Program-made: the position numbers and the translations under genes
In this document: in pieces, positions 13,101 to 55,341 of the stretch
Position numbering within the stretch: the stretch's first letter is position 1
Layout of the letters: the number at the start of each line of letters is the position of its first letter
Source: Eledone cirrhosa
Lineage: Eukaryota
Reading direction: 5' to 3'
Assembly (NCBI GenBank): GCA_964016885.1
Contig: OZ024742.1
Span: 118,234,001 to 118,298,000, forward strand
Length of the DNA: 64,000 bases
The notes under the pieces: generated by a model
Databases searched by the model: none
The model's input: the letters and a program-made list of their open reading frames with translations, nothing else
Told to the model about the DNA's origin: nothing

Positions 13101-13984
13101 TCTTAAACTACATTTTACACATGGACCTTTGCTTACATAATATATAAATAATATATAAATAATAAAGTTTATATGATCTAATTAATTCTGACTGATACAA
13201 GATTTAAAAAATATTTTTAATGAAACACTTCTAAAAGGGAACTCTTTGAAATCTCTAAGAGGAAGTACTTTCCCACTGAAGCAACCAGTTCAGTAGTAAG
13301 TACATCAAGTGTTGCTGTCAATTATGACGCAAGGAAAAGGTATGGTATTAAGGGCAAGCTGCTTGTGAAATGTGTTGCGATATAAGATATACGATGATAG
13401 TTATGCATGTATTTTACAAAAATTGATGGCTTATCTAATGTAGATGCAAGTAAAGCAATACTAATGATCCCTAATTACAACTATATATATGCTGGTGTGT
13501 ATGTGTATGTGTACGCATACACACACACACATATATATATACACATTTATATATAAGTATGCATGTGTCAGTGTTGAACAAAAAGGTGACGTGGTTGCCT
13601 TAACACCGTATGGCATAAATTCAGGCTGTTCAGTTTGTTTACAAACGAACAAAGCGACGTTAGCGCCGCTAAACTGATACGTGCATATATGTATGTGTAC
13701 CTGTATGCATATGTATGTATATATGTATATATATATATATATATGTGCATGCTACTGTACGTCTGTATACATATATGTATGTACGTATACATGCATACTT
13801 ACATTTAAGTAAGTGCCATACTAAGAGTGAGAAATGAAATTTCGTTTTCATTTTGTTTCAATTTATCGTTTTCGGTATGCCTGACCGATTTAACTCACTC
13901 AATATGCAAATTAGGCTGCTCAGCCGTTAATTTTCATAAGGAAAGTATATACTTTCGAACGTTCAACTATCTGGCAGATGGGTA

Positions 13985-14029
13985 AACGGTGCTGATGATA
14001 GCTAACAAGCTTGAAACTAGTACATCGTT
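13985..14029 (+). ncRNA. Type I hammerhead ribozyme (F2, copy 1)
   Basis: aacggtg-CUGAUGA-t agct(aaca)agct t-GAAA-ctag-UA-catcgtt: 7-bp stem I with one G.U, palindromic stem III, GUA site after 14022. Confidence 0.88.
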
Positions 14030-14452
14030 CCTGTGTCAGTGTTGAACAAAAAGGTGACGTGGTTGCCTTAACACCGTATGGCATAAATTCAGGCTGTTCA
14101 GTTTGTTTACAAACGAACAAAGCGACGTTAGCGCCGCTAAACTGATACGTGCATATATGTATGTGTACCTGTATGCATATGTATGTATATATGTATATAT
14201 ATATATATATATGTGCATGCTACTGTACGTCTGTATACATATATGTATGTACGTATACATGCATACTTACATTTAAGTAAGTGCCATACTAAGAGTGAGA
14301 AATGAAATTTCGTTTTCATTTTGTTTCAATTTATCGTTTTCGGTATGCCTGACCGATTTAACTCACTCAATATGCAAATTAGGCTGCTCAGCCGTTAATT
14401 TTCATAAGGAAAGTATATACTTTCGAACGTTCAACTATCTGGCAGATGGGTA

Positions 14453-14497
14453 AACGGTGCTGATGATAGCTAACAAGCTTGAAACTAGTACATCGTT
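14453..14497 (+). ncRNA. Type I hammerhead ribozyme (F2, copy 2)
   Basis: Identical to 13985-14029. Confidence 0.88.
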
Positions 14498-14937
14498 CCT
14501 GTGTCAGTGTTGAACAAAAAAAAAAAAAAAAAAAAAAGGTGACGTGGTTGCCTTAACACCGTATGGCATAAATTCAGGCTGTTCAGTTTGTTTACAAACG
14601 AACAAAGCGACGTTAGCGCCGCTAAACTGATACGTGCATATATGTATGTGTACCTGTATGCATATGTATGTATATATGTATATATATATATATATATGTG
14701 CATGCTACTGTACGTCTGTATACATATATGTATGTACGTATACATGCATACTTACATTTAAGTAAGTGCCATACTAAGAGTGAGAAATGAAATTTCGTTT
14801 TCATTTTGTTTCAATTTATCGTTTTCGGTATGCCTGACCGATTTAACTCACTCAATATGCAAATTAGGCTGCTCAGCCGTTAATTTTCATAAGGAAAGTA
14901 TATACTTTCGAACGTTCAACTATCTGGCAGATGGGTA

Positions 14938-14982
14938 AACGGTGCTGATGATAGCTAACAAGCTTGAAACTAGTACATCGTT
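14938..14982 (+). ncRNA. Type I hammerhead ribozyme (F2, copy 3)
   Basis: Identical to 13985-14029. Confidence 0.88.
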
Positions 14983-15405
14983 CCTGTGTCAGTGTTGAAC
15001 AAAAAGGTGACGTGGTTGCCTTAACACCGTATGGCATAAATTCAGGCTGTTCAGTTTGTTTACAAACGAACAAAGCGACGTTAGCGCCGCTAAACTGATA
15101 CGTGCATATATGTATGTGTACCTGTATGCATATGTATGTATATATGTATATATATATATATATATGTGCATGCTACTGTACGTCTGTATACATATATGTA
15201 TGTACGTATACATGCATACTTACATTTAAGTAAGTGCCATACTAAGAGTGAGAAATGAAATTTCGTTTTCATTTTGTTTCAATTTATCGTTTTCGGTATG
15301 CCTGACCGATTTAACTCACTCAATATGCAAATTAGGCTGCTCAGCCGTTAATTTTCATAAGGAAAGTATATACTTTCGAACGTTCAACTATCTGGCAGAT
15401 GGGTA

Positions 15406-15450
15406 AACGGTGCTGATGATAGCTAACAAGCTTGAAACTAGTACATCGTT
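15406..15450 (+). ncRNA. Type I hammerhead ribozyme (F2, copy 4)
   Basis: Identical to 13985-14029. Confidence 0.88.
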
Positions 15451-15756
15451 CCTGTGTCAGTGTTGAACAAAAAGGTGACGTGGTTGCCTTAACACCGTAT
15501 GGCATAAATTCAGGCTGTTCAGTTTGTTTACAAACGAACAAAGCGACGTTAGCGCCGCTAAACTGATACGTGCATATATGTATGTGTACCTGTATGCATA
15601 TGTATGTATATATGTATATATATATATATATATGTGCATGCTACTGTACGTCTGTATACATATATGTATGTACGTATACATGCATACTTACATTTAAGTA
15701 AGTGCCATACTAAGAGTGAGAAATGAAATTTCGTTTTCATTTTGTTTCAATTTATC

Positions 15757-16350
<594 letters not shown>

Positions 16351-21742: not shown

Positions 21743-21968
<226 letters not shown>

Positions 21969-21998
21969 AGATCAAAAGATGGTTAAAGGAGTTCCATG

Positions 21999-22069
21999 TA
22001 TTTTATTATGCGCATTTCAAATACAAACATCATCATGCAATAATATTTGTGTTTTCATCAGATAAAATA
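21999..22069 (-). ncRNA. Type I hammerhead ribozyme (F3) in inverted pLTR
   Basis: Reverse complement tattttat-CUGAUGA-aaacacaaata...tgtttgtattt-GAAA-tgcgca-UA-ataaaata; 8-bp stem I. Confidence 0.85.
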
Positions 22070-22840
22070 GGAGGACATGATATGAAGGCTAAAAAACACT
22101 TGTGGATAGTGCAGTTTTAAATCAACATATGAAAAGTAATTTTAGATTGATGTGTGATATTGGGAAAACAAATTTTTTTTATTTAGAGAGGGGGGTGGAA
22201 AGGATGAAAAAAGGGGAGGAGATGAGAGTGAAGGTGGAGAGGGAGAGATGGGTGATAGAGAGAAAGGGATAGTTTTTATAACTGAGAAAAGATATATTGT
22301 TTTACATAGAGAGGTTGAAAACCGTTGGAAGATAATGTATAAATTAAAAGAATTTGAAAATTAACGAAGGGAAAAATATGTACGAGGAAGGAGAGGGAGT
22401 TAATATGTATTGAGATTAAAAAGTTTGATGATAGAGAGAAAAAAATAGTAATTGCGGATGAATATTCTAACGTCAAAAAAATGTGTGTGTGTTTACAAGT
22501 ATTATGGCAATTTCAAAATTAACGAAGAGAAAAAATTATTAAGGTTTGTGTATTGAAGGATTTGAGAAAAATAATGTGAAGTTAAGGTTTGTATATTGAA
22601 AGAATTGATAATATGTGCGAAGAAAGAGTTAATATGTATTAAAAATTATTAAGGTTTGTGTATTGAAGGATTTGAGAAAAATAATGTGAAGTTAAGGTTT
22701 GTATATTGAAGGAATTGATAATATGTGCGAAGAAAGAGTTAATATGTATTAAGAATGAGTTAGATGATGGGGAGAAAAAAATAATAAATTAAGGATGAAT
22801 AATCTAGCGTCAAAAAAATGTGTACGAAGAAGGAGAGGGA

Positions 22841-23213
22841 TGTAATTTATGAATGTAAAGTTATAACTAGCACCAATTCCTTCACCTATTTTGGCTCCAC
22901 TTCCACCTCTTTTAAAGCTCGTCTCTATAATCATCATTCATCTTTTAAATACAAACTTAAAAGAACCAACACGGCTCTCCCAGAACTCATATGGTCCTTG
23001 AAAGACAAAAATATTAAATATACCATCTTTTGGAAGAAGGTTTCTTCTGCGTCCTCATACTTGAACAGCTCTCTATCTAAAATCTGTAATCTCTGCCTAA
23101 ATGAAAAATTTACCATTATCTCTAATCTAGATTCTATAATAAATAGACGTACAGATTTGTTTTCTATCTGCTTGCATAAATTCCATAGGACTTTTCACAA
23201 AGTATACAGCTAA
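22841..23213 (+). pseudogene. C-terminal GIY-YIG endonuclease fragment of PLE element 1
   Basis: VIYECKV...YFGST...FKARLYNHHSSF...W...CNLCLNEK...INRR.DL...C.H; same motif order as the end of the 643-aa ORF but clearly diverged. Confidence 0.88.
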
Positions 23214-23389
23214 TATTTAATTCTTTATCAATTTAGAATCTTTTCTCAAAGGCACATATACATACACCTCTTTTAAAATATACCCATCTTCCTACCTTAC
23301 TTCAAAAGGTATTATACACTCTATAATACTTGTTTACTCATTACCCTCATTCTATTTTCACCTTGTAAAATCCTTCATAACATATACAT

Positions 23390-24500
23390 TTGTTTTTTTG
23401 ACGCTAGATTATTCATCCTTAATTTATTATTTTTTCTCCCCATCATCTAACTCATTCTTAATACATATTAACTCTTTCTTCGCACATATTATCAATTCCT
23501 TCAATATACAAACCTTAACTTCACATTATTTTTCTCAAATCCTTCAATACACAAACCTTAATAATTTTTTAATACATATTAACTCTTTCTTCGCACATAT
23601 TATCAATTCCTTCAATATACAAACCTTAACTTCACATTATTTTTCTCAAATCCTTCAATACACAAACCTTAATAATTTTTTCTCTTCGTTAATTTTCAAA
23701 TTGCCATAATACTTGTAAACACACACACATTTTTTTGACGTTAGAATATTCATCCGCAATTATTATTTTTTTCTCTCCATCATCAAACTTTTTAATCTCA
23801 ATACATATTAACTCCCTCTCCTTCTTCGTACACATTTTTTTGACGCTAGATTATTCATCCTTAATTTATTATTTTTTTTCTCCCCATCATCTAACTCATT
23901 CTTAATACATATTAATTCTTTCTTCGCACATATTATCAATTCCTTCAATATACAAACCTTAACTTCACATTATTTTTCTCAAATCCTTCAATACACAAAC
24001 CTTAATAATTTTTTCTCTTCGTTAATTTTGAAATTGCCATAATACTTGTAAACACACACACATTTTTTTGACGTTAGAATATTCATCCGCAATTATTATT
24101 TTTTTCTCTCCATCATCAAACTTTTTAATCTCAATACATATTAACTCCCTCTCCTTCTTCGTACACATTTTTTTGACGCTAGATTATTCATCCTTAATTT
24201 ATTATTTTTTTTCTCCCCATCATCTAACTCATTCTTAATACATATTAATTCTTTCTTCGCACATATTATCAATTCCTTCAATATACAAACCTTAACTTCA
24301 CATTATTTTTCTCAAATCCTTCAATACACAAACCTTAATAATTTTTTCTCTTCGTTAATTTTGAAATTGCCATAATACTTGTAAACACACACACATTTTT
24401 TTGACGTTAGAATATTCATCCGCAATTACTATTTTTTTCTCTCTATCATCAAACTTTTTAATCTCAATACATATTAACTCCCTCTCCTTCCTCGTACATA
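23390..24500 (+). repeat. ~333-bp tandem repeat (~3.3 units, one with a ~110-bp internal duplication) in PLE 3' UTR
   Basis: tgacgctagattattc at 23399, 23841, 24174. Confidence 0.9.
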
Positions 24501-24807
24501 TTTTTCCCTTCGTTAATTTTCAAATTCTTTTAATTTATACATTATCTTCCAACGGTTTTCAACCTCTCTATGTAAAACAATATATCTTTTCTCAGTTATA
24601 AAAACTATCCCTTTCTCTCTATCACCCATCTCTCCCTCTCCACCTTCACTCTCATCTCCTCCCCTTTTTTCATCCTTTCCACCCCCCTCTCTAAATAAAA
24701 AAAAATTTTTTTCCCAATATCACACATCAATCTAAAATTACTTTTCATATGTTGATTTAAAACTGCACTATCCACAAGTGTTTTTTAGCCTTCATAGCAT
24801 GTCCTCC

Positions 24808-24878
24808 TGTTTTATCTGATGAAAACACAAATATTATTGCATGATGATGTTTGTTTTTGAAATGCGCATAATAAAATA
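24808..24878 (+). ncRNA. Type I hammerhead ribozyme (F3) in PLE pLTR
   Basis: tgttttat-CUGAUGA (24816-24822)-long stem II-GAAA (24859-24862)-tgcgca-UA-ataaaata; palindromic stem III atgcgcat. Confidence 0.87.
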
Positions 24879-25017
24879 CATGGAACTCCTTTAACCATCT
24901 TTTGATCTTATATATTATGTATACTCCAGTCCTACAAACTGTAGAGTGCTTCTCATCCGATATCTGCATTGCTTTATTGTACTACAATAAAACTCACCTC
25001 CTACATTATATATATAT

Positions 25018-27060
25018 AAAGAACTCAGGAAAAATTATAAAAAATCTAATAATGCGTCACTCACCAACATCAACAACAAAACACACAACATAGTAAAAAA
25101 ACTAAACATTGAAGATAGAACTGAACCTTTGGCATTGAAAAGACCACACTTCAACCTGAAGGATCATAAATCAAACTTTATCTCAAATCCTTCTATAAGA
25201 CTTATATGTCCCTCCAAATCAGATATTGGAATAATTAGCAAAAAAATTTTGGATAGAGTCATCCCACAAATAAGAAAACACGTTATTTTACCACTCTGGG
25301 AAAACACTTCCCAGGTAATTAACTGGTTTAAAAATATTAGATGTAAATCTTCTGCTTCATTTCTACAATTTGATATAGATAATTACTATTCTTCTATATC
25401 ACCTATACTCCTGAACAAAGCATTGATATTTGCTAAAAATAGATCTAACTTAACTTTGGATGACATTAATATTATTACACATGCTAGACTAACACTTATT
25501 GAATTTCAGAATGAATACTGGACCAGAAACACATATAGTAATCTATTTGATATTACTATGGGTTCAAGCGATTCCGCCCAAATTACTGATCTTGTGGGCC
25601 TCTTTCTCCTTTTCAACATAAATGCCTCCTTTCCCCACCTTAAAGGTGGTTTATATCGTGATGACTGTCTTCTTCTTTCCAACAACCTTAGCCTTTCAGA
25701 AATAGAAAAAGACAAAAAGCATATTAGAACTTTCCTTAAAGACTATTATAGTCTTCATATTACTTTTGAAAAAACAAGTAAAGTAGTAAATTTCCTAGAT
25801 ATAACTTTAGACTTAGCTACGGGTATCTACCAACCTTACCATAAACCCAACCAAAACTTACATTACATACACTCACAATCTAATCACCCTAAATCTATCC
25901 TTAAAAACCTTGCATATAATATATCACTTAGAATTTCTAACCTTTCTTCTAACCAAGATGTATTTGATAAAAATGCGACCTTCTATAACGAAGCTCTAGA
26001 TAGAAGTGGCCACAAAAATAGATTAGAATATATACCTTCTACTAAAAATACTAAAAACATACAACCTAATATTACCAACAAACACCAAATGAAAAGTACA
26101 CACCTAAATGCCACCCACAATATACCCCAAAATACCAAATCTTCTAATATAAAATATAGTAACTCTCAAAAAACTACTCATCATACAACTCTAATAAATA
26201 TTAATAATAAAACTCCTAATAAAAAAGATAAAACACCTAAATCTACAAATATAACTAAAAATGGTTGTGGTGAGATCATTAACATTAATCCTCCTAGTAA
26301 ACATCACGATACAACCTATAAAAATAATAAAAATAATAAACAACATAGAAACCGTAATAGACGGGTTACTTGGTATAATGCTCCATTTAATTTACAAATT
26401 AAGGATAATATTGCTAAAAAATTTTTTTATATCCTAGAGAAAAACTTCCCGCCAAACCACAAATACCATCAAATCTTAAATAGGTCTACAGTTAAATTCT
26501 CATACTCAACAACAAATAACATAAAACAAAATATAAGTGCCTATAATGCATATAAATGTAAGAAAACCATAAGTATACCACCAATACATCAAACTAACCA
26601 TAATATCTCCTCAAATACAGAATTAACGAAAGGTTGTAACTGTAGAAACAAAGCAAACTGCCCATTAAAAGGAAATTGTCTTGTTAACAACATAGTTTAT
26701 AAATGTAATGTTAAAACTAAAGATTCTATTTGCTCATATATAGGAGCTACTTCTAACAATTTTAAGACAAGGTTTAATACCCACAAACATAGTTTTAAAA
26801 ATGCCGCACTGGCTAATACAACATCTCTAGCAGAAAAAATCAATAGTTATAAAAATAAGAATATAGAATATGATTTGACCTGGAGTGTGCTCAAAAGAGC
26901 CACCCCTTATCAAAATAATAGAAATGAATGTAGATTATGTTCCCAAGAACTATTTGAAATAATGAAATCTAAGGATATCCTATTAAATAAACGACAGGAA
27001 TTAATTATATCGTGTAATCATAAACTAAAAAAAACATTTAAATATTATAAACCCAATTAA
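25018..27060 (+). CDS. Penelope-like element RT + GIY-YIG endonuclease (Naiad-like, element 2), 5'-truncated, uninterrupted
   Basis: Frame open from 24991: KLNIEDRTEPLA..LKDHK.NF..NP..RLICPSKS, QFDI..YY.SI, ITMGSSDSA, GLYRDD, VNFLDITLDL, YIHSQSNHP, WYNAPF, CNCR.K..CPL.G.C, VY...YIG, CRLC..E, LNKR.EL...C.H. The ORF-track TTG start is not a real start. Confidence 0.93.
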   Translation, partial: KELRKNYKKSNNASLTNINNKTHNIVKKLNIEDRTEPLALKRPHFNLKDHKSNFISNPSIRLICPSKSDIGIISKKILDRVIPQIRKHVILPLWENTSQVINWFKNIRCKSSASFLQFDIDNYYSSISPILLNKALIFAKNRSNLTLDDINIITHARLTLIEFQNEYWTRNTYSNLFDITMGSSDSAQITDLVGLFLLFNINASFPHLKGGLYRDDCLLLSNNLSLSEIEKDKKHIRTFLKDYYSLHITFEKTSKVVNFLDITLDLATGIYQPYHKPNQNLHYIHSQSNHPKSILKNLAYNISLRISNLSSNQDVFDKNATFYNEALDRSGHKNRLEYIPSTKNTKNIQPNITNKHQMKSTHLNATHNIPQNTKSSNIKYSNSQKTTHHTTLININNKTPNKKDKTPKSTNITKNGCGEIININPPSKHHDTTYKNNKNNKQHRNRNRRVTWYNAPFNLQIKDNIAKKFFYILEKNFPPNHKYHQILNRSTVKFSYSTTNNIKQNISAYNAYKCKKTISIPPIHQTNHNISSNTELTKGCNCRNKANCPLKGNCLVNNIVYKCNVKTKDSICSYIGATSNNFKTRFNTHKHSFKNAALANTTSLAEKINSYKNKNIEYDLTWSVLKRATPYQNNRNECRLCSQELFEIMKSKDILLNKRQELIISCNHKLKKTFKYYKPN

Positions 27061-28139: not shown

Positions 28140-28551
28140 TATTTGTAAGCGTGTATGTATGTATGTATATGTAGGTAGGTGTATATATGTTTGGGTGTTT
28201 ATTTGTAAGTATAAAAATACATATATGCGCATGCAAATAAGGGTGTATGATTGTGTGTATATATATATATATATATATGCACATATATATATATATATAT
28301 GTGTATATATATATGTATGTGTGTGTATACGTGTATGTATATATGTATATGTGTGTATGTGTGTGTGTGTATATGTGTGTATGTATATGTATGTCTCTCT
28401 ATATATATGTGTATCTTTATATCTATGTGCGTATATGTGTGTATGTACATGTATGCACATGTATATGTCTATATGTATATATGTGTATGTGTATATGTGT
28501 ACGTATGTGCGCATATAGATATGTGAGTGTGTGTGCGTGTATATATATGTA

Positions 28552-28596
<45 letters not shown>

Positions 28597-28652
28597 TATT
28601 TATTATTATAATATAATATATGTATATGTATGTATATGTGAAAATATGTATA

Positions 28653-28687
<35 letters not shown>

Positions 28688-28949
28688 TGTATATTTGTAG
28701 TTGATGTGTGTATATGTATGTATATATATGTGTGTGTGTATGTATGTGTGTATATATATGTATGTGTGTGTGTATGTGTGTGTGTGTATATATATATATA
28801 CATATATGTATATGTATGTGTGTGCATATTTGTCTGACTGTGTCTATAATTTTTTTTTTTTTTTTTTTTTTTTTTTATATACATGTATGTGTATGTATGT
28901 ATGTATGTATGTGTGTGCATGTCTATATATGTGTGTGTGTATGTGTATG

Positions 28950-28990
<41 letters not shown>
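28140..28990. repeat. Low-complexity TA/TG tract
   Basis: Direct reading. Confidence 0.9.
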
Positions 28991-28996
<6 letters not shown>

Positions 28997-29248
28997 GAGA
29001 CGTATAGAGATTGTTTTAGCAAGAAGCTAACGGCATTCTATAACATATATATGCGACTATAACGTCAAGATGGGAAAAGTAGTTAACGAAAGATTTAGGA
29101 AAAATAACTCAAACTCATCTCAAAAGAGAATCAGGATACAAATTCATCCACAGAATTTAGTAAAATCCATGGAAAAATCTATAGACCTTTAACTCATGAT
29201 AAAACAAAGTTTGAAACACTTATCCTTCAATTTGGAATAACATCAAAT

Positions 29249-29329
29249 GCTCTGTATAGTCTTAAAAGACTATTTCATGAAAACTTTCAGTGGAGATGGT
29301 CACGGTTGGATATCATTCATCAGCAGAGC
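29249..29329 (-). ncRNA. Type I hammerhead ribozyme (F4, copy 1)
   Basis: Reverse complement gctctg-CUGAUGA-atga(~33 nt)tcat-GAAA-tagtctt tt aagacta-UA-cagagc: 6-bp stem I, 4-bp stem II, long stem III. Confidence 0.9.
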
Positions 29330-29876
29330 TCAACAGAAAACCAGGGCTCTCACAGTAATATAGTCCGAAAAAGGGAATTCTAAAACTGGCTAGTTCGCCT
29401 TCATGTGTATTTATGAAAAATCACATGAGGAAAAAACGGGGCTAGTGATGTCAGGATGGAAGTGAATGTTTATTTACAAGAAATAGCAGTCAAATACATT
29501 CTGAAAAAAACTCTACAAGGAGTTCAGCAAAATAGCAATAATTATCACAGTTTTTATGAAAAAAACCGGGATTAGTCACAGATAGTTTAAGCACTCTAGG
29601 AAAAGAATCCGAGTATAAATATAAATGAGACGTATAGAGATTGTTTTAGCAAGAAGCTAACGGCATTCTATAACATATATGCGACTATAACGTCAAGATG
29701 GGAAAAGTAGTTAACGAAAGATTTAGGAAAAATAACTCAAACTCATCTCAAAAGAGAATCAGGATACAAATTCATCCACAGAATTTAGTAAAATCCATGG
29801 AAAAATCTATAGACCTTTAACTCATGATAAAACAAAGTTTGAAACACTTATCCTTCAATTTGGAATAACATCAAAT

Positions 29877-29958
29877 GCTCTGTATAGTCTTAAAAGACTA
29901 TTTCATGAAAACTTTCAGTGGAGATGGTCACGGTTGGAATATCATTCATCAGCAGAGC
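29877..29958 (-). ncRNA. Type I hammerhead ribozyme (F4, copy 2)
   Basis: As copy 1, with one extra nt in loop II. Confidence 0.9.
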
Positions 29959-30505
29959 TCAACAGAAAACCAGGGCTCTCACAGTAATATAGTCCGAAAA
30001 AGGGAATTCTAAAACTGGCTAGTTCGCCTTCATGTGTATTTATGAAAAATCACATGAGGAAAAAACGGGGCTAGTGACGTCAGGATGGAAGTGAATGTTT
30101 ATTTACAAGAAATAGCAGTCAAATACATTCTGAAAAAAACTCTACAAGGAGTTCAGCAAAATAGCAATAATTATCACAGTTTTTATGAAAAAAACCGGGA
30201 TTAGTCACAGATAGTTTAAGCACTCTAGGAAAAGAATCCGAGTATAAATATAAATGAGACGTATAGAGATTGTTTTAGCAAGAAGCTAACGGCATTCTAT
30301 AACATATATGCGACTATAACGTCAAGATGGGAAAAGTAGTTAACGAAAGATTTAGGAAAAATAACTCAAACTCATCTCAAAAGAGAATCAGGATACAAAT
30401 TCATCCACAGAATTTAGTAAAATCCATGGAAAAATCTATAGACCTTTAACTCATGATAAAACAAAGTTTGAAACACTTATCCTTCAATTTGGAATAACAT
30501 CAAAT

Positions 30506-30587
30506 GCTCTGTATAGTCTTAAAAGACTATTTCATGAAAACTTTCAGTGGAGATGGTCACGGTTGGAATATCATTCATCAGCAGAGC
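30506..30587 (-). ncRNA. Type I hammerhead ribozyme (F4, copy 3)
   Basis: As copy 2. Confidence 0.9.
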
Positions 30588-31220
30588 TCAACAGAAAACC
30601 AGGGCTCTCACAGTAATATAGTCCGAAAAAGGGAATTCTAAAACTGGCTAGTTCGCCTTCATGTGTATTTATGAAAAATCACATGAGGAAAAAACGGGGC
30701 TAGTGACGTCAGGATGGAAGTGAATGTTTATTTACAAGAAATAGCAGTCAAATACATTCTGAAAAAAACTCTACAAGGAGTTCAGCAAAATAGCAATAAT
30801 TATCACAGTTTTTATGAAAAAAACCGGGATTAGTCACAGATAGTTTAAGCACTCTAGGAAAAGAATCCGAGTATAAATATAAATGAGACGTATAGAGATT
30901 GTTTTAGCAAGAAGCTAACGGCATTCTATAACATATATGCGACTATAACGTCAAGATGGGAAAAGTAGTTAACGAAAGATTTAGGAAAAATAACTCAAAC
31001 TCATCTCAAAAGAGAATCAGGATACAAATTCATCCACAGAATTTAGTAAAATCCATGGAAAAATCTATAGACCTTTAACTCATGATAAAACAAAGTTTGA
31101 AACACTTATCCTTCAATTTGGAATACAAACACATACATACACACATACATACACACATACAATTTGAAATACAAATACATACATACACACATACATACAT
31201 ATATATACACACACACAAAG

Positions 31221-31284
<64 letters not shown>

Positions 31285-31365
31285 CTTTGTGTGTGTGTAT
31301 ATATATGTATGTATGTGTGTATGTATGTGTTTGTATGTGTGTTTATGGTTGTACGTGTGTGTGGG

Positions 31366-31400
<35 letters not shown>

Positions 31401-31708
31401 GTCTATATGTATCTCTATTTATATGTGTATATATGTATATGTATATACCTTTTTCTTTGTATGTCTGAGTTGTGTGAGCGTGTAGTGGTGTTTGTATGTA
31501 TATACGCATATATGGATGTGTATGTATTTGTATATATGCGTATATGTAAGTGCGTATGTGTGTGTGAGTATATATCTATGTCTATGTATGAGTATGTATG
31601 TGTGTGTATGTATGTGTGTGTGTATGTATGTATGTGTGTATGTATATGTGTGTATATATATGTATGTATATGTATGTATGTATGTATATATGTATGTATA
31701 TGTGTATA

Positions 31709-31741
<33 letters not shown>

Positions 31742-31868
31742 TTATTATATTATATATGTGTGTGTGTGTGTGTGTATATATATCTTTATATATGTGTATG
31801 TGTATGTATGTGTAGGTGTGTGTGTGTGAGTATATATGTATGTGTGTATATGTGTATGTATGTGTATG

Positions 31869-31946
<78 letters not shown>

Positions 31947-32144
31947 GATAAATCTACCAAGAGTTTACGGTAGTGTCCAATCCGTATGAAGAACTCAATG
32001 TAATCCGGATATCATGGAAAGAAGAGATGCAATGAAAAATCACTTTCGGTGAAAGATAAACGGAATACAGAGTCAAGATAAAATATTAAAAAAATATTAA
32101 AAAATTAAAAAAATAAAAAAAAATATTAAAAAAAATAAATATAT

Positions 32145-32299
32145 TTCATTATTTCTGAAGACGGCATATATGTGTGTTGGGTATGTATATTTAATTTTGA
32201 TAGTTTGTATAATTTTGTATAATTTTGTACATAGATCTGTTGAATATGCATGCCAATTCTAACACATATATATCCTAGAAACGATCGTTAAATAATGAA
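32145..32299 (+). ncRNA. Type I hammerhead with extended stem/loop II (F5, copy 1)
   Basis: ttcattattt-CUGAAGA-~116-nt domain II (ggcatatatgtgtgttgg pairs with ctaacacatatatatcc)-GAAA-cgatcg-UU-aaataatgaa; perfect 10-bp stem I. Confidence 0.8.
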
Positions 32300-32348
32300 C
32301 TTTTTTTGTTTAATATCAGGAACTGTTTCATTGTTTTATTCATTATTT

Positions 32349-32380
<32 letters not shown>

Positions 32381-32527
32381 GTGTGTATGTGTATGTGTGT
32401 ATGTGTGTATATATATATATATTTATGTATATATATATATTTATATGTGGGTATGTATGTGTATGTGTGTATATATATGAGTGTATTTATATATATATAT
32501 GTATGTAGGTGTGACTGTATATATATG

Positions 32528-32588
<61 letters not shown>

Positions 32589-32660
32589 ATGTATGTGTGG
32601 TTATATGTATGAGTGTGTATATATATACGAGTGTTGTGAGTGTATGTATATATATATATG

Positions 32661-32711
<51 letters not shown>

Positions 32712-32767
32712 GCATGTATGTGTATATATATATATATATGTATGCGTGTATGTGTATATGTGTGTAA

Positions 32768-32815
<48 letters not shown>

Positions 32816-33225
32816 TTATGTGTGTATGTGTCTATGTATTTATATGTGTATATGTATGTGTCTCTATATGTATGCGTCTATGTATGTGTATGTGTATTTA
32901 TATGGTATGTGTATGTATATGTATGTGTATGTATGTGTTTATATATATGTGTATGTATATGTATGTATATGTATGTGTGTGTATGCGTGTGCATTTATTT
33001 ATATGTCTATATGTATGTATATCGATGTATACTTTATATTTTACTTGTTTGTATATATATATATGTGTGTGTATGTATATGTGTATGTATATATATGTGT
33101 GTGTATATATATGTGTGTGTATATATGTGTATATGTATGTGTATATATATACGTATGTGTGTATATGTGTGTATATATATATGTATATGTATATATATGT
33201 GTGTGTGTGTGTGTGTGTATGTGTG

Positions 33226-33263
<38 letters not shown>

Positions 33264-33865
33264 CTTGATATATTTCTTTTTTCTTTTTTCTTTTTCTTTC
33301 CTTTTATTTCTAAGTTTATAGATACATCTATAAATAAGCAGTCTGCCGAAACCGTTGAATACTGACCTCTCCCCCCCTCCCACCTAATTTCTGTATCCTG
33401 ATCTAAATATGTGTGGCAGTGTTTATGTGCGTGCATTAATGTCCATATGCTTATGATAATACTATATGCACATATATATGTGTGTGGGGGTGTGTGTGTG
33501 TATGTATGTTCGTAGTTATGTGTATGTTTATGCATATACGCGCGTGTGTGTGTGAGTGTACGAATATGTGTGAGTATATGAATGTGTCTATACATTTATT
33601 TCATATTTATGTGTCTATACGCATTTTATCTGTGGATTATAGACTTACAGAGACATTAGCCTTGAATTTTTGTATTTGCATACATCTTTTTGGCATGCGT
33701 ATGCATGTGAACATATATCTTCATGTAAATATGTGTACGAAGTTAATTACATGTATATACACACACCAAACTGCATAAAATTTTTTGTATTTTCATTGGT
33801 CAATTTGAACTCTGTTCCCAAACGGACCTGAAATTTTGAATTGTTGTTATTATCAATAAATATAT

Positions 33866-34020
33866 TTCATTATTTCTGAAGACGGCATATAGATGTGTTT
33901 GGTATGTATATTTAATTTTGATAGTTTGTATAATTTTGTATAATTTTGTACATAGATCTGTTGAATATGCATGCCAATTCTAACACATATATATCCTAGA
34001 AACGATCGTTAAATAATGAA
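33866..34020 (+). ncRNA. Type I hammerhead with extended stem/loop II (F5, copy 2)
   Basis: Same as copy 1 with a few substitutions in stem II. Confidence 0.78.
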
Positions 34021-34214
34021 CTTTTTTTGTTTAATATAAGGAACTGTTTCATTGTTTTATTCATTATTTTTTTAATATTTTATCTTGACTCTGTATTCCG
34101 TTTATCTTTCACCGAAAGTGATTTTTCATTGCATCTCTTCTTTCCATGATATCCGGATTACATTGAGTTCTTCATACGGATTGGACACTACCGTAAACTC
34201 TTGGTAGATTTATC

Positions 34215-34293
<79 letters not shown>

Positions 34294-34294
34294 G

Positions 34295-34345
34295 AGCTTC
34301 TACAGGAATAGAACTGTTTCATTCGTGAGAAGTCATCAGGAAGCT
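34295..34345 (-). ncRNA. Type I hammerhead ribozyme (F6)
   Basis: Reverse complement agcttc-CUGAUGA-c ttc(tcac)gaa t-GAAA-cag(ttctattc)ctg-UA-gaagct; directly beside (TA)n. Confidence 0.82.
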
Positions 34346-34413
34346 GCCTGTCCAGGTAAGTGTGGTGGTATTTATATCTTTTTTTCTTTTCTGGTAGTAG
34401 GAGAGAGTGGGGG

Positions 34414-34899: not shown

Positions 34900-35218
34900 T
34901 GCGGCACGTTGCCGAGTGTTTAGAGAATTGGATTTGCAATCGTGAGGTTGTGAGTTCGATTCCTGGACCGGGTGATGTGTTATGTCCTTGAGCAAGACAC
35001 TTTATTTCACGCTGCTCCTTCTACCTGGAGTTGCAACCGATAGATAGTATTACCAACGGAAACATTGTTTCCGCGGTCCGATTTAACGAAAGTCGATCGA
35101 CTGTCGATATATATATATAAGACATGGTCACGCGACCTGGCATTGCCCATAACAGGACAACCCGTCTAACCCATGCTAGCGTGGAAGAATGGACGTAAAA
35201 CGGTGATGATGATGATGA

Positions 35219-39862: not shown

Positions 39863-40084
<222 letters not shown>

Positions 40085-44845: not shown

Positions 44846-47004
44846 ATCCACGAGAGTTACACTTTATGCTCATATTAGTATCAGGCATACCCTTAATTAT
44901 TTTTTCTTCGAAGTTAATCTACGTTAGTTTATGTAGATTTCAACCCAGTTACTAAGTGATAAGACATTCTTTTTTTAGTAAATACAGATCCGATGATTTG
45001 TAAATAAGTGAATGAGTCAGCGCGTGCATGTAGATATATATACTTGCACACATGGTATGTGTGAACATATCTCTTTAGTATACAGCTGATAATTCCATAT
45101 GTATGTGTATGTCATATGTACGCATGTAGTTGTGTGCATACAGTCATTCCATGAAATTCAGATGGATAATCGCAGGGTGTCTTACAAATTTTCAGTGTAC
45201 CGTTAATCGATAGAATTTGGAGGGTTCCGTTTAATTTTATTTCTTCTGTCTTGGAAAATCCCAATATTTCCGAGGTTTTATTCAACTATATCTATCCTGC
45301 TGTGTTTTCACTGAATTGCTGCTGTTTTGAGAGACGTTCCACAAGTATTCCTCTTTTTTTTTTAAGTATGGTTACATTTTGGTTTTGGTGCTCCTTTCCT
45401 GTGATCGTTAGGGTATTTATTCCCGCGAATAACTTTATAAGTAGTTTTCACAACTATGCGGTGCGTTGTGGGGACTTAATTCCTCGCTGACAGCCAATAA
45501 TGATGTGAATAACACATTCCTCAGAGATATCAAAATCGAAATTTTATATCACAACGCCGCGTCTTGACCTTTCTTATTGATCAGGTATTTAGCAATTAGC
45601 TCTGCCCTGAATAGCGAATGTGTATCCCTTCCACTGGGTTGTGATATAAGTATCACATATACAAGAGAGACAACTAGTTTGCAGTATATATACCTATGAA
45701 TTACTTCTATTGGTATGACGAGTGTATGATAAATGCTTCTCCTCAATCTTTAAGTAGGTTACTCTAGATATCTTTGGGTCACATTGAACATTTCTACATT
45801 CAGATTATTTGTTCAAGAGTTCTTCACCTACTCCCAAGGTGTTGTTGTTTTCACTGCTAAGTAGGCTTGTGGTGTATTTGTACTTCTCATTAGTATTCAA
45901 GTGTTGTCTAAGTAATAAAATGTGACACTCAAAGGCCGCTTGAACTTGCCTTATGCATCAGCCTCGATCCCTCCATTTAACATAAATCTTGTCTATGTCA
46001 GTCACTGTAAATATGAAAACTGCCAATGGTGGGTAGTATCTTCCACGTTGATATCCAGATAGAGGATCTCATCAAGTGTGCAGTTTAAAGCATTGTGGTT
46101 TGTGGTTTTATTAACGGGAGACAACTCTTCTATATTTGTCTAAGTCTGATGAGTTATTACTTGGTCATTCTGGCTTTACACGCAGCAGCAACGTATGAAA
46201 CATTCGAAACAATTCCAATATATTTGAAGTATTTGCTACTTGAGATGAAACAGATGAAATATTTTCACCCGGTTGGCTACCAAATATAACCAAACACGCT
46301 GTGTATGTCCTGTGAAAATGTTAAGACCAGTTCTAAATGTCTCTTGCTATGAATATTACCTTAATACAGCTTAATGTCATCCATGAAAAAAGTGTGAGTG
46401 ACATTAACATTCCTTTCTTCTTCAAATTATTAACCTTACTGATACATGTTCATATGTGTGTGTGTACGTGTATGTTTGTGCGTGCGTGTGCGGGCATTAC
46501 ATATATGCTTATATATAACGTATAATTTATATTAGAATATAACATAAGATACTATAGATTATCAAACTCAGGTTTAATGACCTTAACTATTCTTTAATCC
46601 ACATTTATCTATGTCTACGTCACAAACTGTATACAGACATAAATATAGAGACCACACACAGACAAATGTTCACAAACACACATATACAATCCCACACCTA
46701 CATATACCTCCCCCCTATGTATATATATATAGGAAAATGTTTGACCCCGACGGCAGAGCTCAAGCCGTTTATATATATATATACACATATATATATAAAT
46801 GTAAGTATGTATACGTACATACATATATGTATACAGACGTACAGTAGTATGTATATATATACATACATGCACACATATATATGTACGTATGGGTTTACCG
46901 AACATTTATTATAATGTTCGGTTTGTTTGTAAACAAACAGCCCAAATTAAGCCATACAGTGTTCGGCAACCATCGTCGCCCTTTTGTTCAACACTGACAA
47001 AGGA

Positions 47005-47047
47005 ACGATGAACTAGTTTCAAGCTTATTAGCTATCGTCAGCATCGT
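47005..47047 (-). ncRNA. Type I hammerhead ribozyme (F2b)
   Basis: Reverse complement of 47319-47361. Confidence 0.87.
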
Positions 47048-47318
47048 ATACCTTCCTCTCAGAGGATTGAACGTTTGAATGTATGTATATATATACATAC
47101 TACTGTACGTCTGTATACATATATGTATGCACGTATGCATACTTATATTTAAGTATCAGCCGTACTAAGAGTGAGAAATGAAATTTTATTTAATCCTTTT
47201 CCATTTATCGTTTTCGGTACGCCCGGCCGACTCGATATGCAAATTAGGCTGCTCAGCTGTTAATGTACTTAAGGAGAGTATATACTTGCAAACGTTCAAT
47301 CATCTGACAGGAAGGTAT

Positions 47319-47361
47319 ACGATGCTGACGATAGCTAATAAGCTTGAAACTAGTTCATCGT
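47319..47361 (+). ncRNA. Type I hammerhead ribozyme (F2b)
   Basis: acgatg-CUGACGA-t agct(aata)agct t-GAAA-ctag-UU-catcgt. Confidence 0.87.
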
Positions 47362-47625
47362 TCCTTTGTCAGTGTTGAACAAAAGGGCGACGATGGTTGC
47401 CGAACACTGTACGGCTTAATTCGGGCTGTTTGTTTACAAACAAACCGAACATTGTAATAAATGTTCGGTAAAACCATACGTACATGTATATATATGTGCG
47501 CATGTATGTATATATATACATACTACTGTACGTCTGTATACATATATGTATGTACGTATACATAATAACATTTAAGTATCAGCCGTACTAAGAGTGAGAA
47601 ATGAAATTTCATTTCATTCTTTTCC

Positions 47626-47690
<65 letters not shown>

Positions 47691-47975
47691 AATAAAATAC
47701 AGTGTTATTAACTGATATTGATACCCTGCAATTAAACAAGCTCAAAGTATGAATACTGACCATTATATAGCAATATATGTATAAATAAACACACTAAATT
47801 TCGTTTCTAAAATTACGAGGGTAGAGAATGCCACAAATGTTTTAAATATTTAATCTTAAACATACAGTAGGATAGTATTTTATACTGTAAAATATGCACC
47901 TCGTGGGCTGCACGCCATACGTGGTATTTTTACTCCTCCGGTTGCTGTTAGATGTGTTTTGTTTCATTTGATCTA

Positions 47976-48064
47976 ATCTCTCGCTGATGATAGCCTACAG
48001 ATTATCTGTTACAAACACAATTTTCAGGGCGAAACAGATTAAATCTATAATCTGTCCGAGAGAT
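47976..48064 (+). ncRNA. Type I hammerhead ribozyme (F7, copy 1)
   Basis: atctctcg-CUGAUGA-ta gcct...gggc-GAAA-cagatta(aatcta)taatctg-UC-cgagagat: 8-bp stem I, 7-bp stem III, GUC site. Confidence 0.88.
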
Positions 48065-48207
48065 AAAATGTTTTTGATACGGTCAGTATAAAATTATATC
48101 CTACTGTAGGCTTAAGATTAAATATTTAAAACATTTGTGGCATTCTCTACCCTCGTAATTTTAGACACGAAATTTACTGTGTTTATTTATACATATATTA
48201 CTATATA

Positions 48208-48395
48208 ATTGTTTCTACTTTTGGCACAAGGCCAGCAATTACCCAGTGCATTACTGGTACTTTATTTCATCGACCTCGTAAGAATGAAAGGCAAAGTTAA
48301 CCTCGGCGGCATTTGAACTCAGAATGGCAAGTGCCGTAACTATGCGTCAAAGCATGGCGTCCGACTCTCTACCGATACTGCCAATCCCACCTTTT
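48208..48395 (-). mobile_element. S1 SINE nested in the F7 element
   Basis: Reverse complement of S1; tattactatataat duplicated on both sides. Confidence 0.85.
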
Positions 48396-48647
48396 TTACT
48401 ATATTATTACTATATAATGCTCAGTATTTATACTTTGAGCTTGTTTAATTGCAGGGTATCAATATGAGTTAATAACTCTGTATTTTATTAGTATTCCGGC
48501 TCCCTATCTAGGTGAGCTTATAAATTGAGTGTAATAAGGCTAATATTTCTAGCATAACCACTCATACCACGTATGGCGTGCAGCCCACGAGGTTCATATT
48601 TTTACTCCTCCGGTTAGTGTTAGATGTGTTTTGTTTCATTTGATCTA

Positions 48648-48736
48648 ATCTTTCGCTGATGATAGCCTACAGATTACCTGTTACAAACACAATTTTCAGG
48701 GCGAAACAGATTAAATCTCTAATCTGTCCGAGAGAT
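48648..48736 (+). ncRNA. Type I hammerhead ribozyme (F7, copy 2)
   Basis: As copy 1; a stem I C-to-U change leaves a U.G wobble. Confidence 0.87.
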
Positions 48737-48882
48737 AAAATGTTTTTGATACGGTCAGTATAAAATTATATCCTTCTGAATGTTTAAGATTAAATATTTA
48801 AAACAGTTGTAGCATTCTCTACCCTCGTAATTTTAGACACGAAATTTACTGTGTTTATTTATACATATATTACTATATATAA

Positions 48883-48995: not shown

Positions 48996-49545
48996 TACAC
49001 ACATAAGTGTGCACTTGATCGTTATCAAGTATTTTGTTTTAAATTTGTTATTAAATTTAATAAGATACTCAACGAGTTATGTAGTCTTACTTTCAGTGTA
49101 GATTGTCTCTAGTTCTGTGTTTTGGTGTGTCTTTGTGCACACTTATGTGTCTATGAATATATTCCAATCACTTTCTTATAATGATTAAGGCTCGATTTTA
49201 TTCTCTGAATTCTATCTTGAGCTGTTTTTAGAGACAAGACATATGTTTGATTTTGTATCATTCGTGACCCCTTTACTTTGAAAGTAATAATAATACTTTC
49301 TTTATTAACCACAAGGGTTTACATAAAATAGACATTAAGGACAGTACAGGACAATACAGGACGATACAAATGGGCATTTCTGCGTGTAAAAAACAAAAAC
49401 AGAGGATGTAACAAAAAAATAACAATGAAAAATTCCTCAGTAGGGGGGAGACTTCCGAGGGACATTTGTGGAGAAAACCCATTAAAAGGCCACAGTGACC
49501 CTGACCACCAGGGCAAGTGCCCTCTCCCAGTTTTCCACCTTTAAT

Positions 49546-52500
49546 TTACAGACCCATACTCAGAGTAGTCCCATTCACTCGGGCCATTCTTGCTTCTCTC
49601 ACCCATCTTTCAACAAAATGCTGGGAAGAGAGCACTTCCCTCTCTACCCTGATTTTCCTTTTCAGATGAAATTTGAAAAAGTTAATCAGGGCATCACCGA
49701 AGAGGTAAGTGCTCGTCTTCAGCCCTTTCAACGTGTCCACCATACTATCTCTTTCACCATGGCCACGAGGCAGATAAAAACTGCCTGCCCTTCCCGGCTA
49801 AAGAAAGAGGGCGGGGCAATCCTCACGATGGACTCAGCTGATAGCCGGATCCGTCCTACACGCGACAGCAGGTGTTCGACATAAACCCACAAGTCAGCAA
49901 TGCTCGGACACTGGATGAGTGCGTGCAGGACGGTTTCGTCGCCCTGCGCGCATCTCGGACATGCCCAGCTGACGGCACCTCCATGCCTGTAGAGTTTATC
50001 CCGAAGTGGCAAGGCTCCTCGATAACACTGCCAGGTCAGGGATTTATGGAAGTTGTCCAAAGGCCCCGGCCCGAAAGTCCTTCCGAAGAGATTGGCTAGT
50101 TGATTTCGTCGACGCCTAGAGTTTCTCCAAGTACGTCGTCGCTCTTCCCCTCCACAAATCCCCTATAGAACACAAAGGTGGAGTTTCCACCGATCACATT
50201 GCCCGATTGGTCGAGGGCTGGGAGCACCTGAAGACATTCTGATCTCCAAGCGCTCCCTCTCGGTCTTCTCTTGACCCAGGACTGCAGCTCCGTCAAGGAG
50301 ACAAGCTGCGGAAAGACGTGTCTAGCAAACGGCGACCACACCTGATCACCGTTGAGGAAGAGGTGGAGATGTCGTAGCCTGAGCGCGTGTTTGCGCATCA
50401 TCAGCCACGGCATGCCCAGCCCTCCACGTAGCGGGTGTTGACAGCAGTTGGACCGCCTGACCATCGGAGCGCGTCCCTTCCACAAAAATAGAAAGAGCAA
50501 ACGCTCCAGCGCAGTCAGGCGGGGCTTAGGACAAGGTACGACGGTCAGGCGGTAGTAGATGACGGACGCGATGTAGGCGTTAGCTACTTCCGCTCGACCT
50601 TTCAGGGATAACTTCCTCTCCGCCCATTTCTGGCTGAGAGAAGCCACCCTGCTCGTCACCTCGTCCCAGTTTTTGTCAGTCTGGAGGTCCGGACCGAACC
50701 AGACCCTAGCAATTTAAGCGGTCCGTCGCTCCAGCGCCCGACGACGTTGTTGGACGGCATGGAGCTGCCTCTCCAGGTGCCGAGCTGCAGGCCCACTGAC
50801 TTTTCCTGGTGGATCATTGCTCCTGTCACCGCTTCGTATTCTCTTAGTGTAGTGCCGATCGCCTCGATGTGTTTGGCGTTCGACACCACTACGGTAACAT
50901 CGTCCGCATATGCTGACACGGATCTTCCACATCCTAGTTCGCGCGGGACCCCCTCAACGTCTCCGGTGTATGCAGTAATGGCTCCAGAGTCAATACGTAC
51001 AAGAGGGACGAGAGAGGACATCCTTGGCGGACCGAGCGCATGATGCTGAACGGTTCCGAAAGGTGACCGTTCACTCTCACCACAGAGCAGATGTCACGGT
51101 GCATAGCAGCGACCCTATCGAAAGCTTTCGACTGATCTAAATTGATCAAGGACCCACCCGTGCCAGTTTCCCTAGCTACCCTCTCTACGATGTATCGCAT
51201 GGGGTGGAGGTTGTCGTGGATGGATCTGTCGGGTATGGCGCATGTCTGCGCCTCTCCCACCAGACCACCAACGACAAGCGCCAACCTCTTTGCTAGCACC
51301 TTGGCCAAAATCTTGAACTCTGTGTTTAGCAGAGTTATGGGCCTGAAATTATGTATGTTATCCTCCTTGTTCGGATCCTTTCTCAGCAGCGCCACCGCTC
51401 CTCGGCTCACAGAGCTGGGAAATTCTCCCGTTCTGTTGCCAGTTGCAGTAGATGTTTGCCAAGAGGCCTCCGAACAAGTCTGGCATCTGTACGTAAAGTT
51501 CATAGGGCAGACCATCCAAACCAGGCGATTTACCCCTTGTGCAGCCAGTCATTGCCTCCCGTACTTCAGCGGCTGTTATCGGCTTTTCGCAACACTCCGC
51601 CTCAGTAGCCGAGAGCCGTGGCAGTCCGTCGAGGTAAACACTAAAGTCCATCCCTCGATCCGGCCCGCCGCTGCCCCCGAACAGCTGAGCAAAGTGTCGC
51701 TGAAAAGCTTCACACATTTGCCTGGGATCGAGTAGCATGCGCCCGTCGTGGTCCACCAAAGACCAGATCGTGGCTTTGTTGCCACGACGCGCCTCCGCCA
51801 CTCGGGCCCATTGAACGGCTTTCGTCCCCTCGTGTCTGAGAGCACGCACCCTAACTCTGACAACGCAGCCTTCTTTCTTTGCATTGAAGAATTGGTCAAG
51901 GGCCAATTTCGCCGCAAGTACGTCGGTCGCGATGCCTTTGCTAAGCGCCTCGTCTAATTTTCTAACTAGTTCTCCCTCTGCTCTATTTTTCTCTATAGCT
52001 AAAGCCTTACTAAACCTAATGGACTCTATTCTAATCGCTCTTTTCAGAGCAAACCACCACTTATTGTTGACGATCGCCCCCGTCAAAGCTCGCTTAACTA
52101 GTTTGCTAATCCGGTCTCTGTAGGCCTTGTGCGCTGGTAATGACGCGTTTAGCGTCCAGTAGCCGGGTCCTTGTCTATGAAGCCTATCTAAGTCAAGCAC
52201 ACAGATCACGAATTTGTGGTCCGTGTAGCTGACTATCTTGAATTGTGGACAGCCTATGCTAGACCTATCTATTTCCTTACAAAATACTCTATCTAGATAT
52301 GATCTGGATGACCCGATACGGTTTGTCCAAGTCCACATTGGCACATTCAGGAAATCCAATCGGTACCTGTCATACAGTTCAAAACGCTTGAGCAGGTTGG
52401 TGAGGCTATTGCACCCTCCTCCCCTATCCGCTAATCCCACACAGTCCCAGCGTGCATCTAAGATCCCGTTCCAGTCGCCCACTAACACTAAACAGTCTGG

Positions 52501-52893: not shown

Positions 52894-52927
52894 GTTGAAA
52901 TAGAGTGGAAAAGATGGGAAAGACCAC

Positions 52928-54900: not shown

Positions 54901-55299
54901 ACGTTCTCTTGGTGAAAGCTACCAGAAACTATATTTTTCTTTTTCTTTAATGGTGTCGCTTGCGAAAGAGGCAACACCACATTTAGAGAAGAGAGAGAGA
55001 CAATCTTCTCTCTGATGTAATGACGATTGAGGAAGAAGACGGAAAGAGTGGGAGTGACTTGTGAAAATCCTTTTTTGTAGCCATGTTTTTTTTTACGGTT
55101 TAAAATGAATATTGGGCACAAAACTCCAATAAGCGGTTATTTAACCCCGAAGGGCAAATAACGAGCAGAAAGACCCCTCTCACGAGGAGGAGGGTGTTTT
55201 ATCTACAATTTGGTTCAAGTTTTAAACAATTTACAATTGTTATAGCGGTTAAAATTTACTATACCTTACAAAGCCGAACCTCCGTCAACCATGGCATTC

Positions 55300-55341
<42 letters not shown>
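55300..55341. repeat. (AAT)14 between Tx1 copies A and B
   Basis: Direct reading. Confidence 0.95.

Follow-up and report, generated by a model that had tools for sequence, protein, structure and literature searches.

The described systems closest to the element studied here are the EN+ Penelope-like retrotransposons (PLEs), and of these the Hydra clade is the most alike (PMC8557442; PMC4209133). According to PMC8557442, partial tandem copies of such elements form pseudo-LTRs, an inverted, truncated copy lies adjacent to them, a tail is often present at one end only and (TA)n is the target; the element at 31944-34217 of the 64-kb window (the whole stretch of DNA analysed, to which all coordinates refer) shares the inverted truncated copy, the two pseudo-LTRs, the one-ended tail and the (TA)n flanks. 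Held in common with Hydra-clade PLEs are also a type-I hammerhead near the 3' end, a palindromic stem III, U17 and an unpaired base after A9, whereas the studied element has no ORF, its domain II measures 116 nt compared with 12-26 nt in 26 Hydra rows and about 54 nt at most in the PMC8557442 table, and its tail is 134 nt long as against the 30-40 nt given in that paper. U17 occurs in 10 of those 26 Hydra rows, and 14 of the 26 have U opposite U at the G10.1-C11.1 position, as read by eye from the same table.

Poseidon of the green anole, as described in PMC11167929, likewise has two alternative 3' ends that define a tail, AT-rich targets and a hammerhead in the pseudo-LTR, but its ORF starts within the hammerhead and its tail is short, whereas no open frame starts in the studied element. 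Animal non-LTR retrozymes resemble the locus in being non-coding, in having two direct type-I hammerheads and in the possibility of a unit-length RNA (PMC7229834; bioRxiv 10.64898/2026.07.22.740005). In those sources they consist of head-to-tail repeats of 150-450 bp, whereas the repeated part of the 1721 nt here amounts to just 229 nt and the whole lies between inverted tails; the short head-to-tail units, each with its own hammerhead, that characterize this class are absent from the studied element. Plant LTR retrozymes also place two hammerhead-bearing direct repeats around a non-coding interior, and are described as having hammerheads of type III, a primer-binding site, a polypurine tract and target duplications of 4 bp (bioRxiv 10.64898/2026.07.22.740005), of which the first three are absent at the studied locus. 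Further background is provided by PMC13282606, PMC3138052, PMC6765202, PMC3124438 and PMC6155905.

The locus is most likely a truncated, partly inverted PLE insertion in a (TA)n-rich tract, which is a known arrangement. Every part of it could be accounted for by PLE processes described in PMC8557442 and PMC11167929, the steps at this particular locus being our reconstruction. The single unusual feature of the insertion is a hammerhead arm several times longer than those tabulated for comparable elements; the layout is ordinary for a PLE, and the modest value of the locus lies in this long-armed ribozyme.

Anatomy and assignment of the insertion

On the left, the element adjoins a (TA)n run (31875..31943) with 69 nt of AT symmetry outside the arms, the putative target. 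The left arm (31944..32096, minus strand) is an inverted, 5'-truncated copy of the element's own 3' end, made up of the tail and the last 19 nt of the repeat, and is followed by an A-rich inversion junction with an 11-nt period (32097..32133), which may have arisen by polymerase slippage on the U-rich end of the repeat. Pseudo-LTR 1 (32134..32362, plus strand) lacks the tail and stops at the family's short 3' end, running into (TA)n, and the same end is found in other copies. The interior comprises block M (32363..33260), a degenerate TA/TG tract that resembles the left flank in make-up and polarity, and block V (33261..33854, plus strand), a multi-copy family sequence upstream of the repeat that has no ORF match and may be a 3' UTR remnant; a TG-rich stretch (33461-33620) lies inside V between two multi-copy parts. 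Pseudo-LTR 2 (33855..34083, plus strand) is followed by the 134-nt tail (34084..34217, plus strand), which spans the interval between the family's two 3' ends, and by an (AT)n run (34218..34290), the putative target on the right. The tail segment follows the right repeat only, is not part of the 1721-nt unit and accounts for most of the left arm. A further hammerhead-like end (34291-34360, minus strand; 12-nt domain II), whose stem I is not predicted to form, adjoins the same (AT)n run as the studied tail.

Much of this geometry had been reported in the initial annotation. Its two hammerheads 1721 nt apart lie, as claimed, in direct repeats, of 229 nt each with 5 substitutions between them, and its inverted terminal arms of about 150 bp (31944-32096 and 34065-34217) proved to be perfect over 153 nt, both adjoining (TA)n. 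The description of the interior as mostly TA/TG holds for the whole, of which 69% of 1492 nt was masked as low complexity, but its two parts differ: 32363-33260 was masked fully and 33261-33854 only to 23%. The term 'LTR-like' had to be abandoned. TG..CA ends are a hallmark of LTRs, whereas the repeats here begin AATAAAT and end ATTTTAT, with an AT run after repeat 1 in place of a primer-binding site and a T-rich stretch before repeat 2 in place of a polypurine tract. The layout is instead the PLE arrangement drawn in Fig. 2 of PMC8557442.

Several findings argue for this assignment. The direct repeats are pseudo-LTRs with a type-I hammerhead, an inverted, 5'-truncated copy lies at the 5' end with breakpoints that vary among copies, and the optional tail corresponds to two alternative 3' ends (34083 and 34217), although it is longer than those published. 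Preference for (TA)n together with a hammerhead near the 3' end is also a Hydra-clade trait, but one common to other PLE clades and so not diagnostic. There is no ORF within the element, and 120 PLE-type proteins searched by tblastn gave no match on it better than E 0.025. An exact-motif search for the repeat among the consensus sequences in the PMC8557442 supplement found no match, although line breaks there could hide one, and visual comparison with Hydra-1_Obim and five cephalopod Naiad 3' ends gave none either. With no ORF linked to the family, we infer its PLE identity from these traits; the locus behaves like a PLE end, while its placement in the Hydra clade would require an ORF. A miniature DNA transposon with 153-nt terminal inverted repeats, a TA target and captured hammerhead repeats would also have perfect inverted ends flanked by TA. 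In other copies, however, the right arm is continuous with the repeat and the inversion breakpoints vary, and the left arm takes in the final 19 nt of the repeat and gives way gradually to slippage sequence, which makes such a transposon extremely improbable.

Copies of the family and the origin of the interior

Part of 33270-34217 was present in 19 of 23 sequence runs, and four runs were aligned to 33258-34222 at 85% likeness, namely three contig sets with three organism labels (X1, X4 and X6), X1 possibly being the origin of the window, and one set of raw reduced-representation reads (X21); the tables hold the best-supported 40 of 142 variant letters and 24 of 338 loose ends. Many variants are found in all four runs and the family is multi-copy, as is the 594-nt block V within it, judged by the reads and contigs aligned over this range. 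The family has two 3' ends, both running into (AT)n: 432 X21 raw reads and two X4 contigs pass from the repeat into (AT)n at 34083, exactly the point at which repeat 1 stops, and X4 record 16 and X6 record 24 continue through the tail to 34217 and then into AT. The inversion falls elsewhere in other copies, with a fold-back at 33869 in a single contig from X4 and another from X6, as judged by eye, and an opposite-strand joint at 33948/34085 in X21 (72 reads, with one start only). V and the repeat are joined in X1 record 3, which differs at 5 letters. X4 records 14 and 15 are identical to 33925-34083, which shows that U17 and the long arm are not peculiar to the studied locus.

These data also bear on whether the locus could be an assembly error, that is, a duplication or inversion built from a high-copy repeat between microsatellites. 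No contig in the aligned sets spans the whole stretch, some window letters (for example at 33892, 33398 and 33722) are unlike nearly all reads, and the left junction falls outside the aligned range of 33258-34222. Nevertheless, 5 substitutions separate the two repeats, independent reads and contigs show inversion joints as well as the tailed and the tail-less 3' end, and the same layout recurs in other families within the window, so that we regard an error of this kind as very improbable.

The family's two 3' ends match the two reverse transcription start sites described in PMC11167929, where the tail lies between two internal start sites and both strands are cut and extended. We propose that a PLE reverse transcriptase/GIY-YIG protein made elsewhere would nick (TA)n and that the element RNA would be copied from one of two internal start points, giving 3' ends equivalent to 34083 (no tail) or 34217 (134-nt tail). 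A first truncated cDNA would consist of V, repeat and tail (957 nt), a second of the repeat alone (229 nt) and a third, on the opposite strand and head to head with the second, of the tail only (153 nt). We infer that priming at the locus took place on the target, and the block between the repeats, most likely a TA/TG tract already present, would have supplied the (TA)n priming sites. Hammerhead cleavage is not required to explain the locus, and for the anole PLE it is reported to need protein and to be dispensable for insertion (PMC11167929). A compound insertion from a multi-copy PLE family that targets (TA)n, with block M as a pre-existing tract, is the explanation that we favour, with moderate rather than high confidence; weighing against it is that two insertions of one family only 900 nt apart require either a single coupled event or a coincidence.

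In its 4-mer make-up, M is nearest to the left flank just outside the element (divergence 0.054, compared with 0.081-0.31 for seven other tracts and 0.575 between M and its own reverse complement), and purine-pyrimidine alternation is 0.92 in M and 0.91 in that flank. Base make-up and strand polarity are common to the two, and the same excess of G over C runs through 28200-28800, 31200-31900 and 32400-33300, such that 28150-33260 reads as a single polarized TA/TG array interrupted by a 629-nt tandem repeat and then by the inverted arm and repeat 1; this compositional likeness does not prove that M and the flank were once one tract. From the sequence, the 898 nt of M probably pre-date the insertion, and the join of repeat 1 to the interior looks like a target junction, the left repeat stopping exactly at the family's shorter end. 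Because repeat 1 stops where copies of the family meet their target, separate priming events at (TA)n runs are the simplest explanation, in a tract that was already in place and that may be host DNA or a long 3' UTR of the parent. That M was not carried along in the studied insertion event seems to us reasonably, if not strongly, probable.

Another possibility is that M is native to a long 3' UTR of the parent PLE and that one reverse transcription ran through tail, repeat, V and M, after which re-priming at the short start point on the (AT)n of its own cDNA added repeat 1. Simple repeats would then travel as ordinary 3' UTR and double cleavage would be unneeded; the movement of simple repeats with Penelope copies has already been reported in shrimp (PMC7878876). 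The TG-rich stretch between the two multi-copy parts of V is in keeping with such a 3' UTR, as is the Hydra-type ORF at 24991-27060, which is followed by TA/TG tracts and after which no plus-strand hammerhead core occurs before that of the studied element at 32155. The ages of arm and repeat also fit one event (P=0.08 for all 5 differences falling within the repeats). Yet it is the flank outside the element that best matches M, V has no significant likeness to the 3' region of that ORF once microsatellite is set aside, and Hydra-clade elements are mostly shorter than 3 kb according to PMC8557442, and we consider a native 3' UTR rather unlikely. A PLE origin, which is common to this account and to the compound insertion, can for the two taken together be held with good confidence.

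Depth across the family is relevant to any model with a fixed unit. Two repeats per unit would be expected to give a repeat-to-V2 depth ratio of 2, compared with the 5-24 observed (means of 23.9 in X1, 5.4 in X4 and 6.4 in X6), although these values are rough and summed contig depth is not copy number. Exact X4 haplotype depths are 106-129 for the repeat, 43 for the tail and about 20-45 for V, not far from 2:1:1. In X1 the depth of V1 exceeds that of V2, so that a 5' gradient is seen in two of the three contig sets only.

Structure and predicted activity of the hammerheads

The hammerhead scan recovered in each repeat the perfect 10-bp stem I, 116-nt domain II and palindromic stem III AACGATCGTT that had first been annotated. 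In the first predicted motif (32145..32299, plus strand), stem I (32145-32154/32290-32299) encloses CUGAAGA (32155-32161), domain II (32162-32277), GAAA (32278), stem III (32281-32288) and a predicted cut after U17 (32289); in the second (33866..34020, plus strand) the corresponding positions are 33876-33882 for CUGAAGA, 33883-33998 for domain II, 33999 for GAAA and 34010 for the U17 after which cleavage is predicted. Both have the core CUGAnGA / GAAA / UH closed by stem I that defines a type-I hammerhead, and both carry the stem III palindrome AACGAUCGUU and the cleavage triplet GUU, which fits NUH. The G10.1-C11.1 pair directly on the core is absent, and in the predicted fold the C after A9 and the UA before G12 are unpaired. 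The scan gave 11 matches in the window and 2 in 30 block-shuffled windows, neither of the latter with a stem I of at least 7 bp, and the fold z-scores of the two motifs are -5.7 and -4.8, with 0 of 200 shuffles as stable for either. Rfam returned no hammerhead match at the gathering score or at E<=5, where its 54 sub-threshold matches were mostly to microRNA models on TA/TG repeats.

Folding predicts pairing between the two palindromes, with a dimer of the repeats more stable than two monomers by 14.8 kcal/mol when isolated and by 7.9 kcal/mol in context, as would be expected for PLE motifs from PMC4209133. In the full RNA, the active double fold is predicted to lie 11.7 kcal/mol above the minimum; A14 can form a pair with U17, and stem I faces competition from the U-rich 3' end. 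Near-copies of the 5' strand of stem I lie downstream of each hammerhead (32327-32348 and 34048-34069) and can capture its 3' strand, lowering stem I from P=0.98 to 0.003 by prediction, an effect not clearly above that in shuffled controls. An 'anti-ribozyme switch' was rejected on these grounds, as 18 of 200 shuffled 3' ends lowered stem I equally far and 71 of the 200 brought it below 0.1. Judged by these models, the hammerheads are intact PLE-type motifs that would work as a dimer, probably weakly or with the help of protein.

The proposal that double cleavage would excise an RNA of about 1.7 kb is geometrically sound, in that cuts at both U17 positions would free 1721 nt. One reading built upon it is that repeat-M-V-repeat replicates as a large non-autonomous retrozyme, whose 1721-nt RNA is cut out, circularized, inserted by PLE machinery and seeds (TA)n targets. 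Such a piece retains the short 3' end, tail-less ends are common in the family, the predicted preference for the dimer is in its favour, and retrozymes derive from PLE pseudo-LTRs (bioRxiv 10.64898/2026.07.22.740005). We nevertheless find it unlikely. The tail occurs twice at the locus and would be missing from the circle, and as both ends of the locus use the tail, the studied locus is not a copy of the excised RNA. The depth ratios of 5-24 depart from 2, and the energetic cost of the active double fold also speaks against it. Published work points the same way, insofar as animal retrozyme units are tandem repeats of 150-450 bp (PMC7229834), PLE hammerheads are weak in vitro (PMC4209133) and the anole PLE inserted without need of cleavage (PMC11167929). 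The circle would retain the short start point, so that the locus could in principle seed a retrozyme; that an active double hammerhead with a 116-nt domain II in fact yields a 1.7-kb circular RNA which keeps the short reverse transcription start point and is reinserted by a PLE as a giant retrozyme carrying (TA)n is improbable. Were the interior to move along, the element would generate (TA)n targets for itself, which would be relevant to microsatellite expansion, and a giant retrozyme would help to explain very microsatellite-rich genomes.

Domain II itself varies within the family. A second form of its 3' strand, found in 630 X21 reads, 17 X1 contigs and one X6 contig, is the exact complement of a 5' strand carrying a 1-nt loss at 33898; pieced together from separate fragments, the two would give a domain II of about 109 nt with a perfect 24-bp helix. 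A further 72 X21 reads skip 84-86 nt of domain II, the intervening letters being undefined, and shorter forms may therefore exist. An A-to-I editing footprint in domain II was considered and rejected, as A>G and T>C changes were not clearly above C>T and G>A (22, 25, 17 and 21 in X21). Domain II lengths in the window are 12, 14, 36, 40, 41 and 116 nt, and Rfam finds none of these motifs. The PLE hammerhead search in PMC8557442 used bounded spacers, of 7-17 nt in its core-only search; given such bounds and the wide range of lengths here, families reported to lack a hammerhead may carry long-armed ones. If the giant-retrozyme reading were true, long-armed hammerheads would constitute a hidden class missed by length-bounded PLE searches. 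We found no PLE hammerhead with a domain II of this length in the literature listings and papers surveyed, although the motif tables of the work on PLE dimer cleavage may include some, and retention of the 116-nt arm in a multi-copy family across three organism labels offers a simple test of how much PLE hammerheads tolerate.

Other repeats in the window

The window is animal DNA, probably of an octopus or a related animal to judge from the likeness of its SINEs, a point on which the argument does not depend. It is rich in (TA)n and contains at least six other hammerhead-bearing repeats as well as coding pieces of Hydra-type PLEs, the latter 5-9 kb from the studied element; Pfam did not recognize the two PLE coding pieces in the window. 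The longer is a 689-aa frame (24991-27060, plus strand) from a 5'-truncated Hydra-type PLE with reverse transcriptase and GIY-YIG-type regions. It contains CxCx5C, CxxC and CxH, which are motifs given for the Hydra clade in PMC8557442, and lacks CCHH, and 1185 relatives were found among 8000 candidates scored; the protein features that mark the clade are the CxCx5C linker, a DKT motif and no CCHH. The second piece, an endonuclease fragment (22803-23213) 37% identical to this frame, lies in a PLE copy at 21965-25008 with an inverted left end, tandem repeats of 110 and 333 nt, a 3' region and hammerheads at 22061 (minus strand) and 24816 (plus strand) with a 36-nt domain II. Its apparent 90-nt tail ends CTAC before AT, like the studied tail. 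The layout in question thus occurs nearby together with PLE coding sequence. The tail and V of the studied element have no significant likeness to the tail or 3' regions of the neighbouring PLE. Homology of the two tails was rejected because 113 of 500 shuffles scored equally well, and that of V to the 3' region of the Hydra-type ORF, which beat 100 of 100 shuffles, disappeared when microsatellite was left out (41-176 of 200 shuffles as good).

Another family has the same layout at 47686-48879, with inverted arms, direct repeats of 283 nt that are 672 nt apart, hammerheads with a 40-nt domain II and long stem III, and an interior with a SINE-like piece that recurs at several other sites in the window. 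The 629-nt tandem (28984-31125, minus strand) has about 3.4 copies of more than 99% likeness, every one of which contains a hammerhead with a 41-nt domain II and a stable stem III, and is a candidate retrozyme that might cut as a monomer. Also retrozyme-like are a 468-nt tandem of 4.7 copies with a small hammerhead (13564-15760) and, at 46800-47631, two inverted copies from a related family (81% alike) in which U17 replaces A17. Inverted arms of 369 nt between (TA)n runs, with an internal direct repeat and no hammerhead by scan, are present at 2369-3620. Beside the end of the 629-nt tandem, a TA/TG tract is duplicated in inverted orientation around a (TA)n run (31123-31380), and palindromes of the same sort at 39993-40063 and 3598-3700 point to fold-back repair at (TA)n. 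Two database signals were discarded, the metagenome match L016 being a single chance match of 25/26 nt within a bacterial-type open reading frame, and the 15 matches of a viral scan being confined to a 16-mer, with no resemblance to the window beyond it. Three related LINE copies that are 80-95% alike, with endonuclease and reverse transcriptase domains and a 1001-aa frame at 55899-58904, occupy 49435-64000 (minus strand). A weak tRNA match (8316-8373, minus strand; 30.6 bits) is probably the head of a tRNA-derived SINE, a related piece of which lies at 34915-35018.
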